Shown here: piece by piece, positions 1 to 13,713 of the stretch | Layout: the number at the start of each line of letters is the position of its first letter | Numbering within the stretch: the first letter of the stretch is position 1 | Virus genome (UHGV): UHGV-0102464 | DNA from: a virus | Reading direction: 5' to 3' (one strand) | Length of the DNA stretch: 14,455 nt | Notes under the pieces: generated by a model | Told to the model about the DNA's origin: nothing | What the model saw: the letters and a program-made list of their open reading frames with translations, nothing else | Databases searched by the model: none | Made by a program: the position numbers and the translations under genes

Positions 1-176
1 CCGGAGGAAAACATGGTCAGGCAAAAGTGTAGCGGTATTAGGCGCAGCTATTTAGTTTTCCATATAAAATAAATAGTTGCGATTGTCTAATCTGTTGTAG
101 TAAATGTGCAGACATTGAAAGAGAAAGACCAGGTTTTTCTTTTCTAACCGAAGGGAAGAAAAGCAAGGGGAAACCG

Positions 177-220
177 GAGAAGCAAGCGCAGCGGCTTCGC
201 AGAGTTAGCCCTTGCTTCTC
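177..220. repeat. GC-rich inverted repeat (10-bp arms GAGAAGCAAG / CTTGCTTCTC, 24-nt spacer) within AT-rich non-coding flank
   Basis: Read directly: arms at 177-186 and 211-220 are exact reverse complements. No T-run follows on either strand, so it is not an obvious intrinsic terminator. Function unknown. Confidence 0.5.
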
Positions 221-930
221 TTATAATTGGCATTATTCATTCAAGAACAATAGGATCTTCGCTTGTACAAGCGAAGCTATAATAAAAACAATCAATTAAT
301 TATTTTAAAAGTATTAAACAAGAACCTATTGACATTCATAAAATACAAGTTATTTATAATGTATGCCATAAATAAAAAGTTTTATGTCATATGTATCCTG
401 CACTATGTGCAGTTAATGTACCACTTGTCCCATAGATGGGAATATTGGAAAGGTTACTTTGTTTTGAAGTAGCCTTTCGTCCTTCAATATTAACGATTAC
501 TTATTGCTATTACCAAGTCCAGTCGAATCGAAGAACATCTTTTATCTGAAACGACTCCTAATACCCGGTTAAAGCCACAATAACTCTCGCATACGTAGAC
601 CAAAGAAAAATTATGATATTAAATATGTGATTTTTTTTAGTGTTAAGTTGAATAATTAAATACTGGAGAGTTTTCTGTGCACTACCAATTGCTGGTTCAT
701 CTGTTCTGCCGCTGATGTTTCTGACGAATCTCCCGGTGACACAGAACTGTCCCTCTCTACCAGCCTTTATTCGACTCAATGTCCGGCTGCTGATACGCAG
801 TTATCCCTTCGTATCAATGACTGACACTTAAACGTAATGCTTTGGTTGCTGGCGTATCTGACAGCTTCTTCGGCGTGAAGGTCGTTGTGTAAGTATACTT
901 CTTGGTTTATTTAGGCTATATAAAACATGA

Positions 931-1827
931 CTATGACTTGCTGTTTTCAGTAAGAGTCTTATCATCCAAAGAATTTATTCTAGAAATTCTTTTTAACTCA
1001 TTAAGATAATCAACCTCGTTTTCTAAGAACCAATGAAGAACTTTAGAATTGCCAAGTAATTTATTAATATATGACTGGATTATAACGAATTTCAACATAT
1101 CTGAACCATACTCGGTTTGAAGCTTTTTCGTTTCTTCCGAAGTTGTTGCCATTTCTTGTTCCAGACGAAGTATGGTTTTTTTTATATCCTTTTTATAGGG
1201 AGTGTTTTTCCCTTTATTTACTATCATCGATGCCGGTGTTGCATCCAAGATGCTCATTGCAAATTTTTTACTATAATTATCAAAATTAATCATTGTACCG
1301 ACTGCTTCAATTTGGCGAATTGGCTTCATTTTCCTCAAAACGTCAAATGTAGCCTTAGGTATAGGTTTATCAGAAAGTTTCGCAATTACACTTGGATCTA
1401 TGCCGTTCATCACATTCGCTTTATCTTTTATGGCATCAACAGATATGCCCAAAGCAGCACTAAGTTTTTCAATTGATACTTTTGCCAGAGACTTAATTAT
1501 CATTCTATGTTCTTCAACTACATTTATATGATTCACTTGTTTGTTAGGAGTGAAAGCATCATCTATGCTCGAAAGTATACATGGGGCTTTTTCTATACCT
1601 AAGTCTTTTAAAGCCTCAACCCTTAAATGGCCATCAAGTATCTTAGTGACATCTTTATCTTTGTCATAGAATACTATTATTGGTTCAATAATACCTAAGC
1701 TTTCGATAGAGGTAACTATTTGATGATATTTATGGCTTCGCTTTACGTTTTCTAATAATTCCTTAGATGGAATTAACTTATTAGTTTCCAGGTAAATAAA
1801 ATTATCGCCAAAACGTATCTGAATCAT
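931..1827 (-). CDS. ParB/Srx-fold (ParBc-like) domain protein, 298 aa, paralog of the upstream gene
   Basis: ORF track 931..1827. The ATG at 1827-1825 overlaps the stop of the upstream gene (ATGA), indicating translational coupling. The N-terminal ~100 aa fit the ParB N-terminal pattern (..SIESLGIIEPIIVF..ILDGHLRVEALKDLGIEKAPCIL..), followed by an HTH-like stretch (KLSAALGISVDAIKDK). The C-terminal ~150 aa are unassigned. Very AT-rich. Confidence 0.7.
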   Translation of the reverse strand: MIQIRFGDNFIYLETNKLIPSKELLENVKRSHKYHQIVTSIESLGIIEPIIVFYDKDKDVTKILDGHLRVEALKDLGIEKAPCILSSIDDAFTPNKQVNHINVVEEHRMIIKSLAKVSIEKLSAALGISVDAIKDKANVMNGIDPSVIAKLSDKPIPKATFDVLRKMKPIRQIEAVGTMINFDNYSKKFAMSILDATPASMIVNKGKNTPYKKDIKKTILRLEQEMATTSEETKKLQTEYGSDMLKFVIIQSYINKLLGNSKVLHWFLENEVDYLNELKRISRINSLDDKTLTENSKS

Positions 1828-2719
1828 TTTAATACCTCTTTGTTTACTGGGGTTAATATCTGAGATGGTAGTTCTGAAAGATTCTCTTGTTCAAGTATAT
1901 GTTGAAAGCTTTTATTCATCATTATGATGTTAAAAATCTCATTTACTATTAGTAGGTTGGTTTTTATGAATTTTGAGTTGTTATAAACAGATTTATGTTC
2001 AGCGATACTATTTTCATAAAGCTCAATCAACTCCTCTGCAGTCATCCTTTTTGATGGTTTGTGATAATAAAATCCGGCTGCTTTTGCACCTTTATTCCCA
2101 ACTGTTCTTTGATTTAGAATGTGTTTTATCTTTATAATGTCCCGACTTTTTATTAATTTTTTATCATATGCTTCGGTAAGAATATCTTGTGCTTCCTCAG
2201 TTTCACATCTTGCAAATTGCACTGCGAGATACAGAGGCAAATTACCCCGTTCGACTGCTGAGAGAAGTTTATGCTCTCCCTTATCAAGTAGCATATTAAT
2301 ACTGCTCACCCAGTTCGATGAATATCCAGTAATCTCACTTATTTCGGAGTCTGAAAGTCCTCTGATTTTCATGTCTTTAATCACCTGTAATAACTCATTA
2401 GAACGTGGTCTTCTCCTTGCAATGTTTTCAACTAAACTCATAACGTAAGCATCTTCTTCTGATACATCTCTTATAATTGCTGGAATAATAGTTTCACCTA
2501 ATGCAACGAGAGCCTCTATTCTCCCTTGACCACAAATTAAAGCATATTTGAAATCGCCTTCATCAATAGCTCTTACGCTTATAGGCTTGCTTAATCCTCT
2601 TTTTTTATGCTTTCCTTTATTTCTTCATGCACTAACTTATTTCTTGTTCGTGGGTTAAGAAATTTTATTTTTGCAATCTCAATTTGAATTATTGGGAATT
2701 CATTTTTTTCAGGCAGCAT
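1824..2719 (-). CDS. ParB/Srx-fold (ParBc-like) domain protein interrupted by a frame change at an A7 homopolymer; full length (~298 aa) only with a -1 frameshift or a 1-nt tract length change
   Basis: The track ORF 1824..2441 (205 aa) begins MSLVENIARRRP.., which is the middle of a ParB domain. ParB homology continues upstream of that ATG in the same frame (RGLSKPISVRAIDEGDFKYALICGQGRIEALVALGETIIPAIIRDVSEEDAYV) up to a stop at 2627-2625, with no in-frame start. A second register begins at ATG 2719-2717, with a GAGGG Shine-Dalgarno about 6 nt upstream and overlapping the last codons of the recombinase gene. It reads MLPEKNEFPIIQIEIAKIKFLNPRTRNKLVHEEIKESIKK and then stops at 2593-2591. The two registers meet in the A7 run (T7 at 2600-2606 on the + strand). 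The joined protein aligns colinearly with the downstream paralog. Confidence 0.6.
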
Positions 2720-4265
2720 ATAGTTCCCTCACTTTCATGCGAGTAATAATTTGTAGAAGTTTATCAAGATTATCAAATCTATAGAGATCTAATCGAATGT
2801 TGTTTGTTTCCGTCATGCACATTTTATTATATTCGTTTTCAATCTTTGGTATGATATAAAAATCAAGAGGTGAAATATTTTGTGAATTCATTCGTATAAC
2901 AATTGTTATGTCTGCTTTCTGTGAGTTATCAAACCGGACTTTCCATCTAAGTTTACCTGATTTCATATGTATGCATTTAGTAACAAGGACGGAAATTAAA
3001 AACTCATCATTGATGTAAAGCATTGGGGCATATTTATACTCGTCTATATGACAGTTACTTTTTAAAATTTCACCCTTAAAATCCTCAATTATCTCTGAGT
3101 GAAATGATCTTAGTGCTTCATTTATTTTGAGATAGCTGTAATCATGTTCTGGCTTATAACCAATCAAAGTATATGCTCTTAAAAGACCACCAAATCGGGT
3201 TCTATAAACAGAAGATGAAGGGCCTGTATCATCTTCATCAATGATAAAGCCTGATAGTTTTCCATTAGATTCTAATTTTTGTTTTAGTTTTTCTAATAGA
3301 TCTTCATTAGTCAAATGAATGGATCGGAGCTGAATTATTTCTTGAGCTTTATTGTGTTTTTTCTTTGAAATAATAGGTTTATATGCCTTGTCACATCTAA
3401 CCCATTCATGTTTGGGGTTTTTTACAAGCCTACTTTTTAATTTAGATGAGGTTTTGTTATATATGTTGTTTCCAATATATTTTTCATTTGTCAAAATTTG
3501 ATGTATTTTTGCACGAGTCCATAATGTTCCATTTTCTGCAGGTATGTTCTGTTCATTTAATCTCTCAGCAATAATGAATTCTGGGACGTTATTATCTATA
3601 AAGAGATCATATATTCTATTTACAATTTTTATTTCATTTTTTGGTCCCGGAATTAATATTACCCTATCTGTTTGAATACTCTTTCTTTTGCGGAAACTCA
3701 ATATTTCTTTAGCTATGCCATTTTCGTCTACTAAAAGACGTCTCAGCCCATAACCAGCCATACCGCCTTGATGATAACCAAGCTTTATTAAATTTACTTG
3801 CCCTATAAATACCTTTTCAGATAAATTCCTGCTGTGATATGCAGCACTAGATCTTTTTATATTCAGTATAACAGAGGACTCTAAAGGGAAATCTTTAGTG
3901 GGTATAGGTTCGGAACAATATATAAGATCTACACCATTTCTCTCAAATAGAAAGGAATAATATGCCGCTTCATCACTATTTTGAAAACGACCAAAACGGC
4001 TCACATCATAAAATAATACAGCCTGTATATCTATTTTCTTTTGTTCTACATCGCTAAGTAACTGCTGCAAAGAATGCCTGCCTACGATACTGACTCCGCT
4101 CTTACCTGCATCATCGTAGGTATAAGCGATTTCCATATTGTTCTTTTCAGCATAATCTTTGATATATTCGGACTGATTATGTAAAGAATATTGCTGATGG
4201 TCGGTAGACATCCTCAAGTACTGCGCGACCCTAACTCTATGATTTTTGTCATTTTCGCTAGCCAT
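2709..4265 (-). CDS. Large serine recombinase (resolvase/invertase catalytic domain + recombinase domain; C-terminal half divergent)
   Basis: 518-aa ORF with an AGGT Shine-Dalgarno about 7 nt upstream of ATG 4265-4263. N-terminus carries the serine-recombinase catalytic motifs: VAQYLRMSTDHQ (Y-x-R-x-S-T-x-x-Q with nucleophile Ser), DDAGKSG, and VLFYDVSRFGR. A recombinase-domain pattern follows (..LIPGPKNEIKIVNRIYDLF..IAERLNEQNIPAENGTLWTRAKIHQILTNEKYIGNNIY..HEWVRCDKAYKPIISKKKHNKAQEI). I saw no CxxC zinc-ribbon pairs in the C-terminal ~220 aa. Confidence 0.85.
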   Translation of the reverse strand: MASENDKNHRVRVAQYLRMSTDHQQYSLHNQSEYIKDYAEKNNMEIAYTYDDAGKSGVSIVGRHSLQQLLSDVEQKKIDIQAVLFYDVSRFGRFQNSDEAAYYSFLFERNGVDLIYCSEPIPTKDFPLESSVILNIKRSSAAYHSRNLSEKVFIGQVNLIKLGYHQGGMAGYGLRRLLVDENGIAKEILSFRKRKSIQTDRVILIPGPKNEIKIVNRIYDLFIDNNVPEFIIAERLNEQNIPAENGTLWTRAKIHQILTNEKYIGNNIYNKTSSKLKSRLVKNPKHEWVRCDKAYKPIISKKKHNKAQEIIQLRSIHLTNEDLLEKLKQKLESNGKLSGFIIDEDDTGPSSSVYRTRFGGLLRAYTLIGYKPEHDYSYLKINEALRSFHSEIIEDFKGEILKSNCHIDEYKYAPMLYINDEFLISVLVTKCIHMKSGKLRWKVRFDNSQKADITIVIRMNSQNISPLDFYIIPKIENEYNKMCMTETNNIRLDLYRFDNLDKLLQIITRMKVRELYAA

Positions 4266-4435
4266 GCACGAAACCTCATGGGTGATTCAATACAATGTAG
4301 AGGATAAAATTGATCAAATTTTAACCGAATTCAACTGTTTTATCATTGATTAGAGCGAATTTGGTAGATCTTCGAGGTGTATGATAATCGAGAAGAGATG
4401 TGAATTATTTAGCTGATATGACCGACAGCTTTCGT

Positions 4436-4485
4436 TATGTGGACTCAATGTCCCCATTTGTAAATGGCTATGCTTAGTCCACATA
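4436..4485. repeat. Nested palindrome: 10-bp inverted repeat TATGTGGACT / AGTCCACATA enclosing inner palindrome CCATTT-GT-AAATGG
   Basis: Read directly: outer arms at 4436-4445 and 4476-4485, inner palindrome at 4454-4467. It lies in the intergenic region between the integrase stop (4548) and the recombinase start (4265). No flanking T-run, so a protein-binding or recombination site is more likely than a terminator. Confidence 0.5.
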
Positions 4486-4547
4486 GGTTAATGGTGTGAT
4501 TATTAATTCTTTAACTAAATCAAGATAGTTAATCCATCATGGGAGAG

Positions 4548-5777
4548 TTATGCGGCAATAACTTTGCATTTTTGAGACGAAACATAGTCACTCCACCATT
4601 GCATGAGAACCACCCGTTCAGTGAGATACTCTGCACGATTGTAGGCTGCAATTATTTCATCTTTCTTCGAGTGGGCAAGGGCGGCTTCTAAGACATCAGT
4701 CCTAAACTTGCCAGACTCCTCAGCAGCCGTTCTAGCAATGGATCGCATACCGTGAGCTACAAGCTCACCTCCGAAGCCCATACGGATTATGGCCGCATTA
4801 GCTGTTTGTTCATGCATGTGATTGAGTGGAGCTTTGATACTGGGGAACACCCACTCTCTATGCCCGCTGATGACTTTCATTAAATCCAAAACTCGCAAAG
4901 CTTCTTTGCTCAGTGGAACTTTGTGAGGCTTCTTCATTTTCATAAACTCCGCCGGGATGTTCCACATGCCAGTTTCAATATCAATATCTGACCATCTTGT
5001 GCGAACAGCTTCACCTGGGCGAACCCATGTGAGAAGTTGCCACTCAATCAGTAGCCTTGTTTCCAAACGGATAGAAGCATTGTTTAGAGCAACCAAGAAG
5101 CGAGGGAGTTCGGAAGGGGGTAATGCTGGCATATTCTGTTTTTTTGGCTTGCTGAACCGTTGCCCCAGGTTGTCTGCCGGGTTGAATTCTATGAGTTCTT
5201 CTGTTGCTGCATAGCGGAAAATTTCATTCAGGCGGGATATGATGCGGCGAAGTGTTTCAAGGACACCTCGTTTTTCTATGGGTTCTAAATGCTGTTTAAG
5301 CATTTTAGGGCGAATCTCCTTAATTGGGGTATCACCCAATGTGGAAAAGATATTTCTCTCTAGGCTTCGCCAGATGTCGTTAGCATGATCTTGGGAGATG
5401 CCTGACGTTTTGACTTTCTCATCAAGCCACTTCTTGGCTACTGCTTGAAATGTATGTTCCGTGGCATCTTTCAGTGCATTGGCTTTTTGGTTGTTATGAA
5501 CTTGGGGGTCTATACCATTTGTAAGCAACGACAAGTATTCATCACGTAAAGCTCGTGCCTTCGCAAGTGTAAGGTGAGGATAGGTTCCTAAGCTCACCTT
5601 AGTTCGCTTTTTGGTCACAGGCACTGCATATCTGAAATACCAATTTTTCTTCCCTCCCTTCGCCAGGGGAGCGATTCGCAACAGCAAACCATCGCCGTCA
5701 AAAAGGTTAACCTCTTTTTCGGCAGGTTTGGTGCTTTTGATTTCAGTGTCAGTGAGCTTCTTAGCGATTTTGGCCAT
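4548..5777 (-). CDS. int: Tyrosine site-specific integrase, P4/IntA (CP4-57-like) family
   Basis: The track ORF runs to 5858, but the conserved N-terminus MAKIAKKLTDTEIKSTKPAEKEVNLFDGDGLLLRIAPLAKGGKKNWYFRY (arm-type DNA-binding domain typical of P4-like integrases) starts at ATG 5777-5775, so I call that start. The C-terminal catalytic region carries the HxxR box (LVAHGMRSIARTAAEE) and the catalytic tyrosine context (IIAAYNRAEYLTERV). Confidence 0.9.
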   Translation of the reverse strand: MAKIAKKLTDTEIKSTKPAEKEVNLFDGDGLLLRIAPLAKGGKKNWYFRYAVPVTKKRTKVSLGTYPHLTLAKARALRDEYLSLLTNGIDPQVHNNQKANALKDATEHTFQAVAKKWLDEKVKTSGISQDHANDIWRSLERNIFSTLGDTPIKEIRPKMLKQHLEPIEKRGVLETLRRIISRLNEIFRYAATEELIEFNPADNLGQRFSKPKKQNMPALPPSELPRFLVALNNASIRLETRLLIEWQLLTWVRPGEAVRTRWSDIDIETGMWNIPAEFMKMKKPHKVPLSKEALRVLDLMKVISGHREWVFPSIKAPLNHMHEQTANAAIIRMGFGGELVAHGMRSIARTAAEESGKFRTDVLEAALAHSKKDEIIAAYNRAEYLTERVVLMQWWSDYVSSQKCKVIAA

Positions 5778-5875
5778 GTTTGGGACCCTCGATTTTAGGA
5801 CCCATCTTCGTGGGTCCCATTCAGGGTGCCATAACTCGTAGTTCTCAGCAATTCTCACTAGACTACAATAGACGT

Positions 5876-5908
5876 AAAAAAGCCCGCAGAGCTTGTGCTG
5901 TGCGGGCT
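5876..5908 (-). terminator. Rho-independent terminator (minus strand) between the ssrA stub and the integrase
   Basis: On the minus strand: 8-bp stem AAGCCCGC/GCGGGCTT-type (plus 5881-5888 pairs with 5901-5908) with a 12-nt loop, followed by a U-run (A-run 5876-5880 on the plus strand). Confidence 0.55.
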
Positions 5909-5943
5909 TAGTAGACTTTACTGAACTTCAGTACATCAATATT

Positions 5944-5978
5944 TGGTGGAGCTGGCGGGAGTTGAACCCGTGTCCGAA
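5944..5978 (-). other. ssrA: 3'-terminal fragment of ssrA (tmRNA): attachment-site core copy, not an intact gene
   Basis: The reverse complement of 5944-5978 reads TTCGGACACGGGTTCAACTCCCGCCAGCTCCACCA. As I recall it, the 3' end of enterobacterial tmRNA is ..TTCGGACGCGGGTTCAACTCCCGCCAGCTCCACCA, so this matches with one mismatch. Similarity stops immediately upstream, and no tmRNA 5' end (GGGGCUG.. acceptor strand) or tag-peptide region lies within 400 nt, so it is a stub. Confidence 0.75.
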
Positions 5979-6303
5979 TAATGCTTAACCTATTGAATAT
6001 TAATGTTTTGTCTTTTTTGAAAGGCCTCAAGTGCATTTTACGTGCATATCGTGGTCCCTCTAACGTCCTGATTCCGTCCAACATTTTGAAATACTCACGA
6101 CGCTACAGAGCTGCTGAAATGGCGGTTTTCCCGTCGTATTCAGCCAGGTATTTACCGTAATTGCGGAACAGCATTTCCGGCCCTTTATGCCCCATCTGCC
6201 CGGCAAGCCAGAAAAGGTTTACGCCCTGGCTAATGTGTCTGGTGGCGAATGTGTGGCGGGTCTGGTACGGGGTACGGTAGCGACACTTTTTTGCACGTTA
6301 GTG

Positions 6304-6333
6304 TTGACTTTGCATAAAAATGTCCTGTATGCT
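6304..6333 (+). promoter_or_regulatory. Sigma70-like promoter (TTGACT -35, 18-bp spacer, TATGCT -10); candidate late promoter pR'-like
   Basis: TTGACT at 6304-6309 and TATGCT at 6328-6333. It is followed about 35-60 nt downstream by an intrinsic terminator, the arrangement of lambdoid pR'/tR' upstream of lysis genes. Confidence 0.5.
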
Positions 6334-6366
6334 TTCCATCGTGGGATATTACGCCTACACGACATC

Positions 6367-6392
6367 AAACCCGCCTCAGCGCGGGTTTTTTT
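6367..6392 (+). terminator. Rho-independent terminator (tR'-like) ending a very short transcript
   Basis: Stem CCCGC(6370-6374)/GCGGG(6381-6385) with loop CTCAGC, followed by T7 (6386-6392). Confidence 0.7.
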
Positions 6393-6456
6393 ATTTCCAG
6401 CAAGGTTTTTCTTCAATGCGTTTGTTATGTTGTGTTTTTTAACTGAGGGTCAGTTG

Positions 6457-6651
6457 ATGAGCGCAGATGAAAACTTGTTGAGTAAAATTCAGGAAGTACG
6501 GACGGTAGAGGATGTGGAGCAAGTCAATTTGGGCCTTTCTAAAGGCTGGGTGATTTTGAAGATCACCGAGAGCTCTACAGTCTGGGAAGATGGCAGCAAA
6601 AGCAGCCTTGTTACATATCACATGGGCAAGCCGAAGGCATTGCCGGTCTGA
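6457..6651 (+). CDS. Hypothetical small protein (64 aa)
   Basis: ATG 6457 with a GAGGG Shine-Dalgarno 7 nt upstream. The track ORF 6187..6651 extends upstream across the promoter and terminator, so the upstream part is rejected. No recognisable motif. Confidence 0.45.
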   Translation: MSADENLLSKIQEVRTVEDVEQVNLGLSKGWVILKITESSTVWEDGSKSSLVTYHMGKPKALPV

Positions 6652-6687
6652 TCAAGCCTTACCAAATCAAAAATTTCAATCATATAT

Positions 6688-6713
6688 AGGCCACCTCACG
6701 GTGGCCTTTTTTG
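6688..6713 (+). terminator. Rho-independent terminator upstream of lysis cassette 1
   Basis: AGGCCACC (6688-6695), loop TCAC, GGTGGCCT (6700-6707), then a T-run to 6712. Confidence 0.75.
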
Positions 6714-6761
6714 TTTCCCCTCAACCTTCTGAGAGGGTCAACAGCAATAAGAGGGGGCAAA

Positions 6762-7166
6762 ATGTCCGCAGAACCGATATCTGCAACGGTAACGGCAGGC
6801 GTGGCCGCCGGCACTACCGGAATCACCTTCGCGACGATGTTTCCAGAAGCGACACCCGCTGTAATGCTTTGCTCACTTGCCGGGGCTGCTCTTTATGTCC
6901 TGAGCAGTGAAGACCACAAAATCTGGAAGCAGATACTGTTCGCGCTCATCTCATTCATTGGTGGAGTCTACTGCGCCGGAACAGCATCTGAAATCATCGC
7001 TGCGCTAATCAATGCGGCATTAAGTCACCTTTCTCCTCCAGTTTCCGTGAAGGTATCTCCAGCTATGGGTGCCCTGCTGGCTTCATCGGTTTCTGTCACC
7101 ATCCTGGCTCGCATCCTCAAACGGTCGAAGACAGGAGACTTACCCGGATTGAAGGGGGAAGAATGA
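6762..7166 (+). CDS. Putative holin / lysis-associated membrane protein (134 aa)
   Basis: ATG 6762 with a GAGGGGG Shine-Dalgarno. Hydrophobic segments (..AGVAAGTTGITFATMF.., ..ILFALISFIGGVYCAGTA.., ..MGALLASSVSVTILARIL..). First gene of a lysis cassette; stop overlaps the next start (ATGA). Confidence 0.5.
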   Translation: MSAEPISATVTAGVAAGTTGITFATMFPEATPAVMLCSLAGAALYVLSSEDHKIWKQILFALISFIGGVYCAGTASEIIAALINAALSHLSPPVSVKVSPAMGALLASSVSVTILARILKRSKTGDLPGLKGEE

Positions 7167-7444
7167 CGTGGCAAACACTGATCCTGAACATTAACGCTGT
7201 TGCATGCATCCTCATCACCATACGCCTGATGTTCTTCAGGAAGCGGAGCTTACGGCGCCGCCGTCTGATGGAGTTTCTGGCCTATGGGCTGATCCTCGCT
7301 CCAGCGTTTACCGCTTTCCGCATCTGGCATGGTGATTACGTGCAGGTCGACTACGGAGAGTTGGTCGTCAACCTTGTTGTCTGCATAGCTGTATGGCGAG
7401 CACGTGGCAACATCGCAAGAATAGCAGGGGAAAGCACAACGTGA
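7163..7444 (+). CDS. Small membrane protein (93 aa), holin/antiholin-like
   Basis: ATG 7163 overlaps the upstream stop, with a GAAGGGGG Shine-Dalgarno. Two hydrophobic helices separated by a basic stretch (RKRSLRRRRL). Lies between the putative holin and the endolysin. Confidence 0.4.
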   Translation: MTWQTLILNINAVACILITIRLMFFRKRSLRRRRLMEFLAYGLILAPAFTAFRIWHGDYVQVDYGELVVNLVVCIAVWRARGNIARIAGESTT

Positions 7445-8070
7445 ACCAATCACAATTTCAAAAGGCGGCTGGCATTAGCGCCGGGCTCGCTTCGCGCTGG
7501 TTTTCGCATATCGATGCTGCAGTGAAGGAATTCGGCATAACCGCGCCGCTCGATCAGGCCATGTTTATCGCGCAGATGGGCCATGAGTCCGGCGGTTTCA
7601 CCCGGCTGGTGGAAAACCTGAACTATGCGGCAGAAAACCTGGTACCTACGTTCGGCAAGCATCGCATTACTGCGCAGCAGGCCGCCGCACTCGGCAGAAC
7701 GGCAACGCAACCGGCAAATCAGAAAGCGATAGCCAATCTGGTTTACGGCGGTGAGTGGGGCAAAAAGAACCTGGGCAACCAGGTTGCTGGTGATGGCTGG
7801 AAATATCGCGGCCGAGGCCTTAAGCAAATCACCGGGCTTAGCAACTATCGCAGTTGCGGCCAGGCTCTCAAACTGGATCTGGTTTCGTATCCAGAACTAC
7901 TGGAACGAGATGAATACGCTGCGCGCTCCGCCGCATGGTTCTACGTCTCGCACGGATGCCTGCTCCATTCAGGCGATGTGGAGCGCGTCACGCTGCTTAT
8001 CAATGGCGGACGTAACGGGCTGGATAAACGCCGCGCGCTGTTTAACCTGGCGAAGTCTGTGCTGGTGTGA
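7441..8070 (+). CDS. Endolysin, glycoside hydrolase family 19 (chitinase-like lysozyme)
   Basis: GH19 hallmark motifs: FIAQMGHESGGF and YRGRGLKQITGLSNYR (compare the GRGPxQ(L/I)(S/T)xNY motif of GH19 chitinases). Start placed at GTG 7441, which overlaps the upstream stop (GTGA); the alternative ATG 7393 lacks a Shine-Dalgarno. Confidence 0.8.
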   Translation: MNQSQFQKAAGISAGLASRWFSHIDAAVKEFGITAPLDQAMFIAQMGHESGGFTRLVENLNYAAENLVPTFGKHRITAQQAAALGRTATQPANQKAIANLVYGGEWGKKNLGNQVAGDGWKYRGRGLKQITGLSNYRSCGQALKLDLVSYPELLERDEYAARSAAWFYVSHGCLLHSGDVERVTLLINGGRNGLDKRRALFNLAKSVLV

Positions 8071-8077
8071 GGTCACT

Positions 8078-8347
8078 ATGGGATTAGAAACAATCGTCGG
8101 TATTGCTGCCCTGATAATGGCAGCTATCGCTGGTGCTTTTGGCATTGGTCATTCACGCGGCACCAGCAAAGCGGAAGCCAAAGCCGATCAGCAGCGCACT
8201 GAAGAACGTGCAACAGCTACTGAAGCTGTTGCTGAACGCCGGGTAGAGACAACAAAAGGAGCCAGGGATGTACAGCAAACTGTTAATCATCTTCCTGATG
8301 ACGATGTTGACCGTGAGTTGCGCGAAAACTTTACCCGCAAAACCTGA
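8078..8347 (+). CDS. Rz-like inner-membrane spanin (i-spanin) component, copy 1
   Basis: ATG 8078, 8 nt after the endolysin stop. N-terminal transmembrane helix (IVGIAALIMAAIAGAFGIG) then a charged helical region. The track ORF 7751..8347 is the same frame extended upstream into the endolysin and is rejected. Assignment is by position and architecture. Confidence 0.6.
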   Translation: MGLETIVGIAALIMAAIAGAFGIGHSRGTSKAEAKADQQRTEERATATEAVAERRVETTKGARDVQQTVNHLPDDDVDRELRENFTRKT

Positions 8348-8489
8348 ATTAACGGACACAGCCTGTGACTGGGTGGACATTATCTACCTCACTGAACACG
8401 ATATTGCCGTGCTGGATAAGCAGACGAAGCGGGACATATTGGTGCACAATAAATCAGTGCAGGCTAACTGTGCAAAAAAAATAAATTGA
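8268..8489 (+). CDS. Rz1-like outer-membrane lipoprotein spanin (o-spanin), overlapping the 3' end of the Rz-like gene in another frame, copy 1
   Basis: ATG 8268 with an AAAAGGAG Shine-Dalgarno. Signal peptide plus lipobox-like ..MTMLTVSCAK; several Cys. The ORF begins inside the Rz-like gene and extends past it (P2 lysB/lysC-like overlap). Its sequence is conserved in copy 2. Confidence 0.6.
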   Translation: MYSKLLIIFLMTMLTVSCAKTLPAKPELTDTACDWVDIIYLTEHDIAVLDKQTKRDILVHNKSVQANCAKKIN

Positions 8490-8590
8490 AAATGAGAAAT
8501 GAAAGTAGTAAATATGTGCCAAGCTGTGATGAAACCAGCAATGAAGCACGTTCTTTAATCCGCATTCTCTGAAAAAGAGAAAGAATTATA

Positions 8591-8618
8591 AGCCTCGGTT
8601 TAATACCGGGGCTTTTTT
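8591..8618 (+). terminator. Rho-independent terminator after lysis cassette 1
   Basis: AGCCTCGG (8591-8598), loop TTTAATA, CCGGGGCT (8606-8613), then a T-run to 8618. Confidence 0.7.
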
Positions 8619-8768
8619 GTATCTGCATTTCACCGCGCACCGCAGCGCATTCAATCACGTCGAACCCAACCTTTTGGAATGAGCCGTTGAGGAGTCAGTT
8701 AGTGCTGGCGAGCCTCGACGGGCTGATTTCCTATGCGACAAAGGTTCATTTCAAAGAAGGTAAACGCA

Positions 8769-9356
8769 ATGCACGACTCAACAAGCGGGTTGGTCTTTGG
8801 AGTTGGCAAACTCGATGTACACCCCGTTATCAATAAAGGGGTAAAACTCAGGTCATACAGAGTATGGTTTGGGATGCTGAAAAGATGCTACGGAAAGGGA
8901 ACGGCATTTAAAAGTGAATACCAAGGATGCTCAGTCGATGAGCAATGGCACAAGTTCAGTAATTTTCAGCAATTTTACGACAAGAATTACTTCGAAGGCG
9001 CCGAGTTAGACAAGGATTTGCTTTATCTGGGTAATAAAGTTTACTCAAAAGATAGGTGCGTGTTCATCCCGTCATTCCTCAACGCCTTTATCACTGTTAG
9101 GCCGCCAAGAAACAACAACCTTCCGATTGGCGTATACCAAGTTAGCAACAGCCGGAAGTATCAATCAGAAATACAAGTTAATGGTGAAAGAAAATATCTA
9201 GGACTCTTTGAAGATCCGCATGAAGCTCACTCCGCTTGGTTTAATGAAAAGCTGAATATGGCAATTTCCTACAAAGAGTTGTGCGATTCTCTGCACCCTG
9301 ATTTGTATGGCGGACTCATAACAAAAATAGAAAGCATGCGAGTCTATCCGGATTAA
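8769..9356 (+). CDS. Hypothetical protein with AP2-like DNA-binding domain in C-terminal half
   Basis: ATG 8769 with a GAAGG Shine-Dalgarno 8 nt upstream (the track start 8733 has none). The C-terminal stretch IGVYQVSNSRKYQSEIQVNGERKYLGLFEDPHEAHSAWFNEK resembles the AP2 domain found in phage HNH/AP2 proteins. The N-terminal half (..SYRVWFGMLKRCYGK..) is unassigned. Confidence 0.5.
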   Translation: MHDSTSGLVFGVGKLDVHPVINKGVKLRSYRVWFGMLKRCYGKGTAFKSEYQGCSVDEQWHKFSNFQQFYDKNYFEGAELDKDLLYLGNKVYSKDRCVFIPSFLNAFITVRPPRNNNLPIGVYQVSNSRKYQSEIQVNGERKYLGLFEDPHEAHSAWFNEKLNMAISYKELCDSLHPDLYGGLITKIESMRVYPD

Positions 9357-9481: not shown

Positions 9482-9793
9482 ATGGCTAAGCGTATGCAAG
9501 ACAAAGAGAGCATTGCCGGGATGTCCTGGCTGGTTCTGCTGATCATTGCTTGCTGGGGTGGACTTGTCCGCTACCTGATAGATGTGAAGCAGAGCAAGGC
9601 AACATGGAGCTTGATCAATGCTCTTGCCCAAATGGTGGTTTCAGGGTTTACCGGCGTTATTGCTGGCCTGGTGAGCATTGAAAGCGGACTGAGCATTTAC
9701 ATGATTCTGGCAACCGCGGGGATAAGCGGCGCGATGGGCTCCGTAGCGCTCACGTATTTCTGGGAACGAATCACCGGAGTGAAAGCACAATGA
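9482..9793 (+). CDS. Holin (103 aa), lysis cassette 2
   Basis: ATG 9482 with a GGAGG Shine-Dalgarno 8 nt upstream. Hydrophobic helices; stop overlaps the endolysin start (ATGA). Confidence 0.6.
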   Translation: MAKRMQDKESIAGMSWLVLLIIACWGGLVRYLIDVKQSKATWSLINALAQMVVSGFTGVIAGLVSIESGLSIYMILATAGISGAMGSVALTYFWERITGVKAQ

Positions 9794-10329
9794 CAGCAGA
9801 CCAGATTATCGAGGGGATCCTCGGCAAGGAGGATGGTTATGTCGATCATCCGTCGGATAAAGGCGGGCCGACCCGCTGGGGCATCACGCAGACCACCGCC
9901 CGTGCACATGGCTACACCGGTGATATGCGGAACCTGCCCAGGGAAACAGCAAAGCAAATCCTGCTGAGCGATTACTGGACCGGCCCCCGGTTTGACCAGG
10001 TGGCAGCTCTATCTACGTTACTGGCAGATGAGCTTTGCGACACTGGCGTGAACATGGGGCCATCTGTAGCCAGTAAGTTTTTCCAGCGCTGGCTGACCGC
10101 AATGAATATGCGCGGAAAGCTGTATCCCGATCTGATTCCGGATGGCGCCATTGGTCCCCGAACCATCACCGCGCTTAAGGGATACCTTTCCGCCCGCGGG
10201 AAAGAGGGTGAACAGGTTCTGTTGCGTGCGCTGAACTGCAGCCAGGGTGCCAGATACCTCGAACTGGCGGAGGGCCGCGAAGCCAACGAGGATTTTCTCT
10301 ACGGCTGGGTTAAGGAGCGTGTCCTGTGA
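9790..10329 (+). CDS. Endolysin, glycoside hydrolase family 108 N-terminal domain + peptidoglycan-binding C-terminal domain
   Basis: N-terminal EDGYVDHPSDKGGPTRWGIT matches the GH108 signature (EGGYVDDPxDxGGxTxxGIT). C-terminal ..IPDGAIGPRTITALKGYL.. resembles the PG-binding-3 type domain. Confidence 0.8.
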   Translation: MTADQIIEGILGKEDGYVDHPSDKGGPTRWGITQTTARAHGYTGDMRNLPRETAKQILLSDYWTGPRFDQVAALSTLLADELCDTGVNMGPSVASKFFQRWLTAMNMRGKLYPDLIPDGAIGPRTITALKGYLSARGKEGEQVLLRALNCSQGARYLELAEGREANEDFLYGWVKERVL

Positions 10330-10670
10330 AGATGATCATTTTCGCTTTGCTTGTGCTGGTGGCTGTGCTCGTTCTGTTACTTCTGCGCAAATATACCCGG
10401 CTGGAGTTCGTAGGGCATGCCAGCTTGCTGCTGAAAACGTGGTCTGTAAAGCTGGGAGCTATCGGCGCGCTGGTTGGTGTATGGGCGCAGTCGTTCCCGG
10501 ATGCTGCGCTGCACGCCTGGGCGGTGCTGCCGCCGGATATCAAAAACATCCTGCCGCCAAACATCGTTGCGTTGATTAGCCCTGCGCTGGTGGTGCTGGC
10601 CGTACTATCGCAATACGTACGCCAGCCAGCATTGAAAGAAAAGGCCGACGAACTGAAGGAGCAGCAATGA
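10326..10670 (+). CDS. Membrane protein between endolysin and spanins (LysA/antiholin-like position)
   Basis: Start GTG 10326 (overlaps the endolysin stop) or ATG 10332, with an AAGGAG Shine-Dalgarno at 10310-10315. Strongly hydrophobic (IIFALLVLVAVLVLLLL.., ..LVALISPALVVLAVL..). Stop overlaps the Rz-like start (ATGA). Confidence 0.5.
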   Translation: MKMIIFALLVLVAVLVLLLLRKYTRLEFVGHASLLLKTWSVKLGAIGALVGVWAQSFPDAALHAWAVLPPDIKNILPPNIVALISPALVVLAVLSQYVRQPALKEKADELKEQQ

Positions 10671-10942
10671 GCTTTGAAATTATCGCGGGACTGGTGGTCG
10701 TCATCCTGGGTGCTATTGCTGGCGCGTTCGGCATTGGTCATGCTCGCGGGGCCAGTAAGGCGAAAGCCAAAGCTGATCAGCAACGTACCGAAGAGAACGC
10801 CGCTGCTACTGTCGCCGCGGCAGAACGCCGTGCTGAAGTCACGAAAGGGGCCAGCGATGTACAGGAAGACGTTAAGCGTATGGGCGATGACGATGTTGAT
10901 CGGGAGTTGCGCGAAAAGTTTACCCGCCCCGGTAGTCGTTGA
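10667..10942 (+). CDS. Rz-like i-spanin component, copy 2
   Basis: ATG 10667 with a GAAGGA Shine-Dalgarno. Roughly two-thirds to three-quarters identical to copy 1 by eye (AIAGAFGIGH..KADQQRTEE..DDDVDRELRE.FTR conserved). Confidence 0.6.
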   Translation: MSFEIIAGLVVVILGAIAGAFGIGHARGASKAKAKADQQRTEENAAATVAAAERRAEVTKGASDVQEDVKRMGDDDVDRELREKFTRPGSR

Positions 10943-11081
10943 CACGGCCTGCAGCTGGGTGCGGATCATCTACCTGACTGACCACGATATCGATGTGTTG
11001 GATAAGCAGACCAAGCGCGACATTCTGGCGCACAACAAAGCAGTGCAGGCCAACTGCCAGAGCATTACCCCTACTCATTGA
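10857..11081 (+). CDS. Rz1-like o-spanin lipoprotein, copy 2 (overlapping and extending past the Rz-like gene)
   Basis: ATG 10857 with an AAAGGGG Shine-Dalgarno. MYRKTLSVWAMTMLIGSCAK.. then DTACSWVRIIYLTDHDIDVLDKQTKRDILAHNKAVQANC, closely matching copy 1. The track ORF 10674..11081 is the same frame with a spurious upstream extension. Confidence 0.6.
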   Translation: MYRKTLSVWAMTMLIGSCAKSLPAPVVVDTACSWVRIIYLTDHDIDVLDKQTKRDILAHNKAVQANCQSITPTH

Positions 11082-12450: not shown

Positions 12451-12478
12451 AGACCTCGAATCCCGAGGTCTTTTTTTT
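12451..12478 (+). terminator. Rho-independent terminator after the moron
   Basis: AGACCTCG (12451-12458), loop AATCC, CGAGGTCT (12464-12471), then T8 to 12478. Confidence 0.8.
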
Positions 12479-13215: not shown

Positions 13216-13713
13216 ATGCCAGGACCACCGAAAACCCCGACACATCTGGCTTTAGTGAAGGGGAACCCATCCAAGCGCCCGATCAATAAGAACGAGCCAA
13301 AACCCCCGTCAGGGGTCCCCCCAATACCGAAACATTTCGATAAACAGGGTAAGTACTGGTTCAAACGGATTGGTGAGGAACTTGATGCCGTCGGCGTGTT
13401 GACCACGCTGGATGCTAAAGCGCTGGAGTTGTTGATAGAAGCCTATGTTGAATACCGGCATCACTGCGACACGCTTGATCGTGAAGGTTACACCTATGCC
13501 GTCTACAGCGAAGATGATTCAGATGAAGGAGGGGAGCGGGAAATCAGAATGATCAAACCGCACCCTGCAGCAGTCATGAAGGCTGACGCGTGGAAACGGA
13601 TCAGAGCGATGCTGAGCGAATTCGGCATGACACCTGCCAGCCGATCAAAGGTTGGTGCAAAAGACCCGGCAGAAGCCGACCCACTGGAAGAATTTCTTAA
13701 AAAGCGCAAATGA
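13216..13713 (+). CDS. Terminase small subunit (P27-family-like)
   Basis: ATG 13216 with a TAGGAG Shine-Dalgarno. ..LDAKALELLIEAYVEY.. pattern and placement between the HNH gene and the large terminase gene. Confidence 0.75.
   Translation: MPGPPKTPTHLALVKGNPSKRPINKNEPKPPSGVPPIPKHFDKQGKYWFKRIGEELDAVGVLTTLDAKALELLIEAYVEYRHHCDTLDREGYTYAVYSEDDSDEGGEREIRMIKPHPAAVMKADAWKRIRAMLSEFGMTPASRSKVGAKDPAEADPLEEFLKKRK

Follow-up and report, generated by a model that had tools for sequence, protein, structure and literature searches.

The closest described counterpart of the locus reported here is the late control region of phage lambda. Its promoter, pR', has the form TTGACT-N17-TAAATT and is followed after 6 nt by AACGAT (+1 to +6) and then GGG, and the sigma-70-dependent pause at +16 is the point at which the antiterminator Q is loaded. 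The Q-binding element (QBE) of lambda is reportedly placed in the spacer between the -35 and the -10 hexamers. The lambda 6S RNA is 194 nt long. Decayed lambdoid prophages that keep late or lysis parts are also familiar, among them the cryptic prophages DLP12, Qin and Rac of E. coli K-12 and the defective prophage pool of O157:H7. Such prophages can depend on functions from other prophages, and DLP12 and Qin keep Q homologues (quuD and quuQ). In Stx phages the RNA made from pR' to tR' is processed to an Hfq-dependent regulator, StxS (PMC7547250). The Pfam family PF03589 corresponds to the Q-lambda family according to Yin et al. (PMC9388147), and in the structure of lambda Q the body and the arm of the protein read opposite ends of a 13-bp site (PMC9388147).

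We analyzed a stretch of 14,455 nt from the virus genome UHGV-0102464 (the window), in which a first-pass annotation had described a late promoter and a terminator with no Q gene upstream. The promoter, both terminators, the ssrA stub and a 47-codon frame that it listed all lie where it had placed them. Our preferred reading, to which we give a probability of roughly 85% on the basis of sequence comparison, is that positions 6284-6396 are the intact late-gene control region (pR', Q-utilisation site and tR') of a Hendrixvirinae-type lambdoid prophage located in the 3' end of ssrA, and that Q was lost together with about 8.65 kb in a single microhomology-mediated deletion. The pR'-tR' unit and its state of decay are both of well-known kinds; this is ordinary prophage decay and no new type of element, and what looked like a puzzling promoter with no gene is explained as the control region of a decayed prophage. 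Lambda keeps Q whereas the window is without a Q gene, and unlike DLP12 and Qin this remnant has lost Q, although its lysis cassette is intact and a site that is apparently responsive to Q is still there.

The pR'-tR' unit and its Q-linked relatives

From window position 6278-6280 rightwards the sequence matches the phages AsXd-1, Fraca and Fostie, and the match starts 16-18 nt after the stop codon of a 783-bp gene. The annotations of Fraca and Fostie name it antiterminator Q, and AsXd-1 and Fraca are classified in Hendrixvirinae. The 260-aa products of the 783-bp genes match PF03589 (E = 1e-52), so that the cognate Q of the window's relatives belongs to the same family as lambda Q. Their identity to lambda Q is 35% (E = 4e-40), and they have a zinc-ribbon insertion of about 53 aa, with extra CxxC motifs, that lambda Q lacks. 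A scan of IMG/VR with the Q of the ETEC1749 prophage yielded 558 loci encoding a relative, and the best 80 of these 558, which comprise 57 distinct downstream sequences, were analyzed. All of the best 80 have the same layout of Q, -35, N18, -10, N3, NANNNT, GG and a terminator hairpin, and this recurrence of the module after Q in 80/80 related loci bears out the earlier proposal that the unit is a true late leader of the pR'/tR' type.

The elements of the unit lie on the plus strand of the window and can be followed from left to right. An upstream promoter block containing a T-tract (6284-6303, about -57 to -38) is near-invariant in the 57 distinct sequences of the Q-linked relatives and is fully kept here. 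The -35 hexamer TTGACT (6304-6309), which lies 41 nt past the Q stop codon in 79 of the 80 related loci, is separated by an 18-nt spacer from the -10 hexamer TATGCT (6328-6333). In the relatives the latter takes the forms TATACT, TAAGCT, TATGAT and others, in which the second base is still A and the sixth still T. Inside the spacer sits a candidate Q-binding element, TTGCATAAAAATG (6310-6322), and transcription would start at about 6340. Next comes a predicted sigma-dependent pause element (6337-6345), composed of the -10-like hexamer CATCGT and a discriminator-like GGG. In it A6338, T6339, T6342, G6343 and G6344 are constant in 55-57 of the 57 distinct sequences, while the other positions of the hexamer vary (CATCGT, GATTAT, AATCGT, CAACGT and others are seen among the relatives). 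Among the constant hexamer positions are the two that sigma region 2 needs, namely A at 2 and T at 6. The predicted pause site is CG at 6352-6353, and of the 57 distinct sequences 55 have C6352 and likewise 55 have G6353.

The leader ends in a tR'-type intrinsic terminator (6367-6395, plus strand) that has an 8-bp GC-rich stem (6367-6374/6381-6388), a 6-nt loop and a U7 tract reaching to about 6395. At least four different hairpin sequences occupy this same place after Q in the 80 loci, and E. coli MS 115-1 adds another. The leader RNA (6340-6396) folds with -18.1 kcal/mol, which corresponds to z = -3.3 against shuffles. The exact string of the window, from the -35 through the GGG, occurs in 6 of the 80 Q-linked loci, and its presence beside Q in these six indicates that the orphan copy is undamaged. 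Loci with a Q of at least 91% identity have a near-invariant spacer block, whereas that of MS 115-1 is different (TTGTCCGAAGTTG...). The Q of MS 115-1 is identical over residues 1-122, and its divergence is greatest in the zinc-ribbon arm that is inserted. A spacer block that differs where the Q arm differs fits the way in which the body and the arm of lambda Q read the 13-bp site.

The comparison with lambda can be made block by block. The candidate element TTGCATAAAAATG and the lambda sequence TTGAATAAAATTG are identical at 11 of 13 positions, the -35 hexamer TTGACT is shared, and the distance from the start of the AT-rich, QBE-like block to the -10-like hexamer is 27 nt in both. The AACGAT and GGG of lambda correspond to the CATCGT and GGG of the window, and the lambda pause at +16/+17 corresponds to the window's CG, which lies 6 nt after the GGG within CGC and whose spacing from the pause element would equal that in lambda. 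In both systems a terminator and then the lysis genes follow. The differences are that the spacer is 17 nt in lambda and 18 nt in the window, that the -10 hexamer precedes the pause element by 6 nt in lambda and by 3 nt here, and that the window's leader of about 55 nt is shorter than the 6S RNA. Given the 3 nt, rather than 6 nt, and a start near 6340, the predicted pause would fall at about +13/+14 and not at +16/+17. The ungapped identity to lambda pR' is 26/59 overall, which is no better than at random offsets in the window, and therefore only a block-wise colinearity is claimed, based on short blocks that were chosen after the fact. Read in this way, 6304-6396 would consist of a promoter, a QBE, a sigma-dependent pause element, a pause site and tR'. 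For the study of sigma-dependent pausing and Q loading, this phage group offers a comparative data set of 57 distinct sequences of a Q-lambda-type loading site that arose in nature, in which the pause element is 3 nt closer to the -10 than in lambda.

By analogy with lambda, RNA polymerase would initiate constitutively near 6340, sigma-70 would re-bind the -10-like element at 6337-6342 (with its GGG), and the transcription complex would pause near 6352-6353, where a Q positioned on the spacer element 6310-6322 could load onto it. The Q-modified polymerase would then pass the terminators at 6367-6395, 6688-6713, 8590-8620 and 12451-12477 and enter the lysis and packaging genes. With no cognate Q supplied in trans, only the leader RNA of about 55 nt is expected, made constitutively, and the late genes of the window should be silent unless a co-resident or infecting phage brings a Q of the same specificity. 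The dependence of the late genes on a Q in trans had been anticipated by the first-pass annotation, and it follows from there being no Q in the window.

The absence of Q and the proposed deletion junction

No Q gene was found in the 14.5-kb window by tblastn with Q proteins of the families PF03589, PF06323 and PF06530, which gave nothing credible. The seven queries were three of the 260-aa Qs, lambda Q, the Q of MS 115-1, a PF06323 (Q82-family) protein from Klebsiella phage ST11-VIM1phi8.2 and a PF06530 (Q21-family) protein from phage vB_EcoS-733R5. The best match in the window had an E-value of 0.016, lay in an overlapping frame at 10271-10483 and was gone under default settings. Additionally, Pfam and PHROG scans of the remaining ORFs of the window returned only genes of the island and of two lysis cassettes, as well as HNH nucleases and terminase, and no Q. 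The intact relatives always carry their cognate Q immediately upstream of the promoter, and it is from this place that Q is missing here, as had been noted before.

What occupies the place is the end of an integrase gene. The minus strand of 6103-6283 encodes RYRTPYQTRHTFATRHISQGVNLFWLAGQMGHKGPEMLFRNYGKYLAEYDGKTAISAAL, then a stop, which are the last 59 codons and the stop codon of a 390-aa tyrosine integrase (int'), with the RHT...GH...Y catalytic tail present. This product is identical in 58 of its 59 residues to residues 332-390 of the integrase of E. coli MS 115-1, where the prophage is located at ssrA (E = 3e-42), and it matches the catalytic end of PF00589 (profile positions 127-165). 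At the DNA level the int' region has an identity of 99.1-99.4% to MS 115-1, and to the int gene of ETEC1749 one of 95.9%. The N-terminal 331 codons have been lost by deletion. Since int' is on the minus strand, the frame at 6090-6230 is integrase antisense and not a remnant of Q; its description as 47 plus-strand codons without a stop or a start was accurate, but a relation to Q did not hold. A 3' remnant of Q in 5979-6300, which had been put forward as something to look for, is ruled out, as this region is the int 3' end on the minus strand and tblastn with the seven Q proteins gave zero matches to it.

The homology to the integrase ends at window 6279-6283 and the post-Q homology begins at 6278-6280. 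In the alignments a 6-bp microhomology, TA(G/T)CGA, is common to the int side and the post-Q side and marks the deletion junction (6278-6283). Just beside the junction, G6272 is a SNP specific to the window. The ETEC1749 prophage has an intact gene order and a pR' leader that is 99.1% identical to that of the window, and in it the corresponding breakpoints, locus positions 1799 and 10451, are separated by about 8.65 kb. The ETEC1749 and UMNK88 prophages use the same ssrA integration site, and the int-to-Q segment of about 8.65 kb is retained by these relatives. The most likely explanation for the absence of Q from the window is thus a single internal deletion of about 8.65 kb, which would have begun near codon 331 of int and ended about 16 nt beyond the stop codon of Q. 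In comparison to ETEC1749, the window lacks int codons 1-331 and eight small leftward ORFs, as well as a repressor of the LexA family, a cro-like HTH gene, genes for a helicase and a primase, and Q. The right breakpoint is located about 60 nt upstream of the presumed start of transcription, so that the whole promoter was kept, the conserved upstream block at 6284-6303 included.

Recurrence of the Q-less state and the leader RNA

The exact GH19 endolysin of the window is listed in 445 collection blocks. In all 24 of the other contigs that were read with this exact protein, the island region lies directly left of the lysis genes and there is no Q. The island integrase flanks the lysis genes in 23 of the 24, and the remaining contig (L117) has an IS transposase instead, the IS element having replaced the end of the island integrase, the promoter and the start of the holin. 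The same junction is present in L014, L115, L116, L118, L119 and L120. L014 is 99.8% identical to window 53-8771, junction included, and diverges at 8771, and in L115, L116, L118 and L119 the segment 6304-6396 is 100% identical to the window. A scan for the junction pattern found one IMG/VR contig that carries it and none among JGI metagenome contigs, and three matches among GTDB species representatives (Enterobacter, Pseudescherichia) are Q-side relatives, with the junction in 0 of the 3. The recurrence of the junction suggests that the deletion was one old event that has been inherited by a lineage, for which it can serve as a marker. In full, this type of pR' is present in only 2 of 5426 complete E. 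coli genomes, both of which have Q, and donors of a cognate Q thus look rare in E. coli.

Given the existence of StxS, it is legitimate to ask whether the unit is, or has become, a small RNA gene whose pR'-tR' transcript of about 55 nt acts in trans as an Hfq-binding regulator and was for this reason kept after the loss of Q. The first-pass annotation had likewise offered an independent small RNA as one of its options. StxS is a precedent for by-product RNAs of pR'-tR' being functional sRNAs (PMC7547250), and in both cases a short RNA from the late promoter would end at tR' without the action of Q, although constitutive synthesis is a prediction in the present case. The end of the leader, a strong hairpin followed by a U7 tract, would suit such a role, as would the 100% identity of 6304-6396 in four other Q-less genomes that retain pR'. 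However, the identity among the Q-less genomes is about 99.8% throughout the region, and identity of the leader is therefore uninformative on selection. StxS itself is 74 nt long, arises by processing and binds Hfq, its targets have been shown, and its phage keeps Q, whereas in the window Q is deleted and the RNA is predicted from the DNA. Rfam gave no match at the gathering thresholds and only noise-level matches at E <= 1. The positions that are conserved in the leader are DNA signals (A2/T6, GG and CG) and not a seed or a structure, and from the pause site to the terminator the leader variants share no similarity in their RNA, with no conserved seed. Additionally, L117 has lost pR' through the insertion of the IS element. 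The pattern of conservation lends no support to a small RNA gene, and we consider it unlikely that the unit is one, or that it has such a role in second place.

A broader suggestion would be that the stranded pR'-tR' has been kept in this Escherichia lineage for some use, either as an StxS-like sRNA of about 55 nt or as a trigger for a superinfecting phage with a matching Q, which could lead to helper-dependent lysis or particle production. We give this only a slim chance. As a lineage-wide remnant that combines a putatively Q-responsive promoter and an intact lysis cassette with the absence of Q and repressor, the locus does provide a natural test bed for the cross-activation of prophages.

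The flanking DNA and other accounts of the junction

Downstream of tR' and ahead of the second intrinsic terminator there is a variable cargo slot, which in the window is occupied by a 64-aa ORF (6457-6651, plus strand). This ORF has no Pfam or PHROG match. The exact 64-aa protein is listed in 1745 collection blocks, and among the 10 places listed, 9 have a PF03589 Q gene upstream of it, the exception among these 10 being L014 (GCA_900450495.1), which is Q-less. In the ETEC1749 and UMNK88 prophages and in the phages Fostie, Fraca and AsXd-1 the slot holds other genes (TerB/DUF3927, HNH). The second terminator (6688-6713, plus strand; hairpin 6688-6707, T-tract to 6713) lies just upstream of the holin and is conserved in AsXd-1 and Fraca, and its fold has z = -5.0 against shuffles. 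It is followed by a lysis cassette (6762-8489, plus strand) that is apparently intact according to Pfam and PHROG matches and consists of a holin (6762-7166), a holin/antiholin (7163-7444), the GH19 endolysin (7441-8070), an i-spanin (8078-8347) and an o-spanin ORF (8268-8489). The lengths of these genes equal those of the Q-bearing relatives L018 and L019, and the GH19 endolysin of intact relatives is about 95% identical to that of the window.

After the lysis cassette there is a third intrinsic terminator (8590-8620, plus strand) and then an HNH-like ORF (8733-9356), whose exact protein was found in only two short contigs. For a conserved element upstream of the HNH genes a long stem is predicted, with no covariation, the sequences being too similar. 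From about 9374 the window continues with a second lysis cassette and with terminase genes, which are those of another type of phage. The phages that match this second region have their own Q and late promoter further upstream. Both are absent from the window, and consequently 6304-6333 is the only Q-type late promoter within it. Four strong terminators (6367, 6688, 8590 and 12451) lie between this promoter and the terminase genes, the last of them (12451-12477) ahead of the terminase genes.

The composition of the late region bears on whether a single deletion occurred at all. Illegitimate or patchy recombination could instead have joined an older, int-only remnant at ssrA to the late region of another lambdoid phage. 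The late region is indeed mosaic, as its cargo slot and holins are unlike those of ETEC1749, the lysis cassette and terminase that begin at about 9374 belong to another type of phage, and the L014 type departs from the window at 8771. We nevertheless find such an assembly improbable, because ETEC1749 and UMNK88 have the 95.9% identical int and the 99.1% identical pR' leader together in one prophage at the same site, and because one deletion with 6 bp of microhomology accounts for the junction in one event. An assembly from two elements would yield the same sequence as a single deletion.

On the other side of int', the left boundary of the prophage is now fixed. The 35 nt at 5945-5979 (minus strand) are the 3' end of ssrA (tmRNA), identified by a cmscan match to the 3' end of the tmRNA model. 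They are the original chromosomal end of ssrA, displaced by integration of the prophage, whose attL core they form. This stub is followed by the native terminator of ssrA (about 5876-5910, minus strand), which is covered by an IsrM-like match. The phage att arm, from the att core to the integrase stop codon (5980-6102), belongs to the stretch that matches the MS 115-1 prophage, at its int-proximal end, with 99.1-99.4% identity.

The first-pass annotation had suggested that insertion of the genomic island removed or disrupted Q, with the island junction now sitting in the place of Q. This is understandable, as only about 170 nt separate the island integrase, on the left, from the ssrA stub, and the interval from the stub to the promoter is free of Q. 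The island DNA (window 137-5944) is, however, 99.8-99.9% identical to the sequence directly after ssrA in 574 complete E. coli genomes, and the ssrA terminator is still joined to the stub on the island side, which is the normal layout of E. coli beside ssrA. As the island is native to this position and the terminator is attached, the prophage would have entered ssrA between the gene and a pre-existing island, which by all indications is undisturbed E. coli DNA beyond the attL of the prophage, and the island is not what removed Q. The att core, the att arm and the int 3' end are intact in the DNA that leads from the island to the breakpoint, and both breakpoints are within prophage DNA, about 300 nt from the island. 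MS 115-1 has a comparable tandem order in its complete form, with island integrase, ssrA stub, int, early genes, repressor, replication genes, Q and lysis genes, and there Q is still present next to an island. The ssrA-side island of MS 115-1 differs from that of the window and is of the intA type. Removal of Q by the island is thus contradicted by the layout and very improbable, and the cause is corrected to a deletion internal to the prophage.

The promoter of the unit, TTGACT-N18-TATGCT, has 9 of 12 consensus matches, and promoter-like sites number 2 in the sequence against 1.8 +/- 1.2 expected in shuffles. The match alone is therefore at chance level, and the reality of the promoter rests on the comparative evidence. 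That the promoter-like and terminator-like motifs are functionless chance matches, as the agreement of this count with the shuffles might suggest, deserves next to no weight, since the positions of the motifs are conserved in 80/80 Q-linked loci across at least four leader variants that are otherwise different.

Hybrid late region and a possible recombination point

The late region of the window carries two complete lysis cassettes in tandem on the plus strand. The first (6762-8489) is of the AsXd-1/ETEC1749 type and comprises two holins, a GH19 endolysin and spanins. In the second (9482-11081), the holin belongs to phrog_785 and is accompanied by an endolysin, a phrog_1356 gene and a spanin; this cassette is followed on its 3' side by an HNH gene, TerS (13216-13713) and TerL. 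From the second cassette onward the matches are to Klebsiella phages and phage vB_EcoS-733R5, which makes the late region a hybrid of two phage types. The widespread relatives that also lack the late antiterminator gene Q (L014 and L115-L119) share 99.8% identity with the window as far as window 8771 (L014 10317), a position within the HNH cassette. Beyond this point they carry prophage debris unrelated to the window, namely a P22 antirepressor N-terminal fragment, DUF2514, cold-shock genes and GnsAB. The leader of the HNH cassette may have acted as a recombination point.

A conserved element upstream of HNH genes

An element of about 130 nt, approximately 85% conserved, is found in 32 of the 120 loci compared; it lies at 8621-8749 in the window and at 7257-7385 in the Q-bearing relative L012, with 31 other loci carrying it. 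The element starts directly 3' of a terminator T-tract and ends just 5' of the start of an HNH endonuclease ORF, and the ORFs that follow it differ, with 207 aa in the window and a 161-aa HNH_3 in L012. Among the 32 loci it is frequently placed directly 3' of tR', the terminator of the late leader. A long stem is predicted for it (-40 kcal/mol), and no covariation supporting this stem was found. One possibility is that a mobile HNH cassette has this element as its conserved 5' end.

In many Q-bearing relatives the HNH_3 gene is itself flanked by two leader/terminator copies (L012 7100-7950, and also L013, L015-L018 and L021). The first copy is a pR'-leader-terminator that is complete and of one variant, and the second is a partial leader and terminator of the variant present in the window. 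The inserted nuclease gene is thus surrounded by a duplicated tR' region.

The slot between tR' and the second terminator (6688-6713) holds a 64-aa ORF (6457-6651), and its exact protein is listed in 1745 blocks of the collection. No Pfam or PHROG family was found for it. Lambda orf-64 is also 64 aa long and is located at the corresponding place, but its protein shows no similarity to that of the window.

Variation in Q, the integrase fragment and the ssrA flank

The Q of the ETEC1749 locus (L005 9653-10453) is annotated as 266 aa, 6 codons more than its relatives. Based on the annotated coordinates and a tblastn match, its usual stop appears to have been lost, with the frame extending to a TAG within the conserved block 5' of pR'. 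The integrase fragment of the window has a SNP of its own at 6272, 7 nt from the deletion junction, where a G in place of T changes Asn335 of the integrase to Thr; the equivalent position is T in every other Q-less genome and intact integrase examined.

The model of the Salmonella sRNA IsrM gave a partial match on the minus strand at 5876-5953 (46 bits, E = 6e-11), which is far below the model's gathering score of 376. The match spans only the two ends of the model and falls on the terminator 3' of ssrA, which suggests that these ends match attachment-site DNA flanking ssrA. In the E. coli island to the left of the ssrA stub, the second RepB/ParB-like gene (1824-2441, minus strand) encodes 205 aa, compared to 298 aa in other genomes, which suggests a truncation or a changed start codon position.
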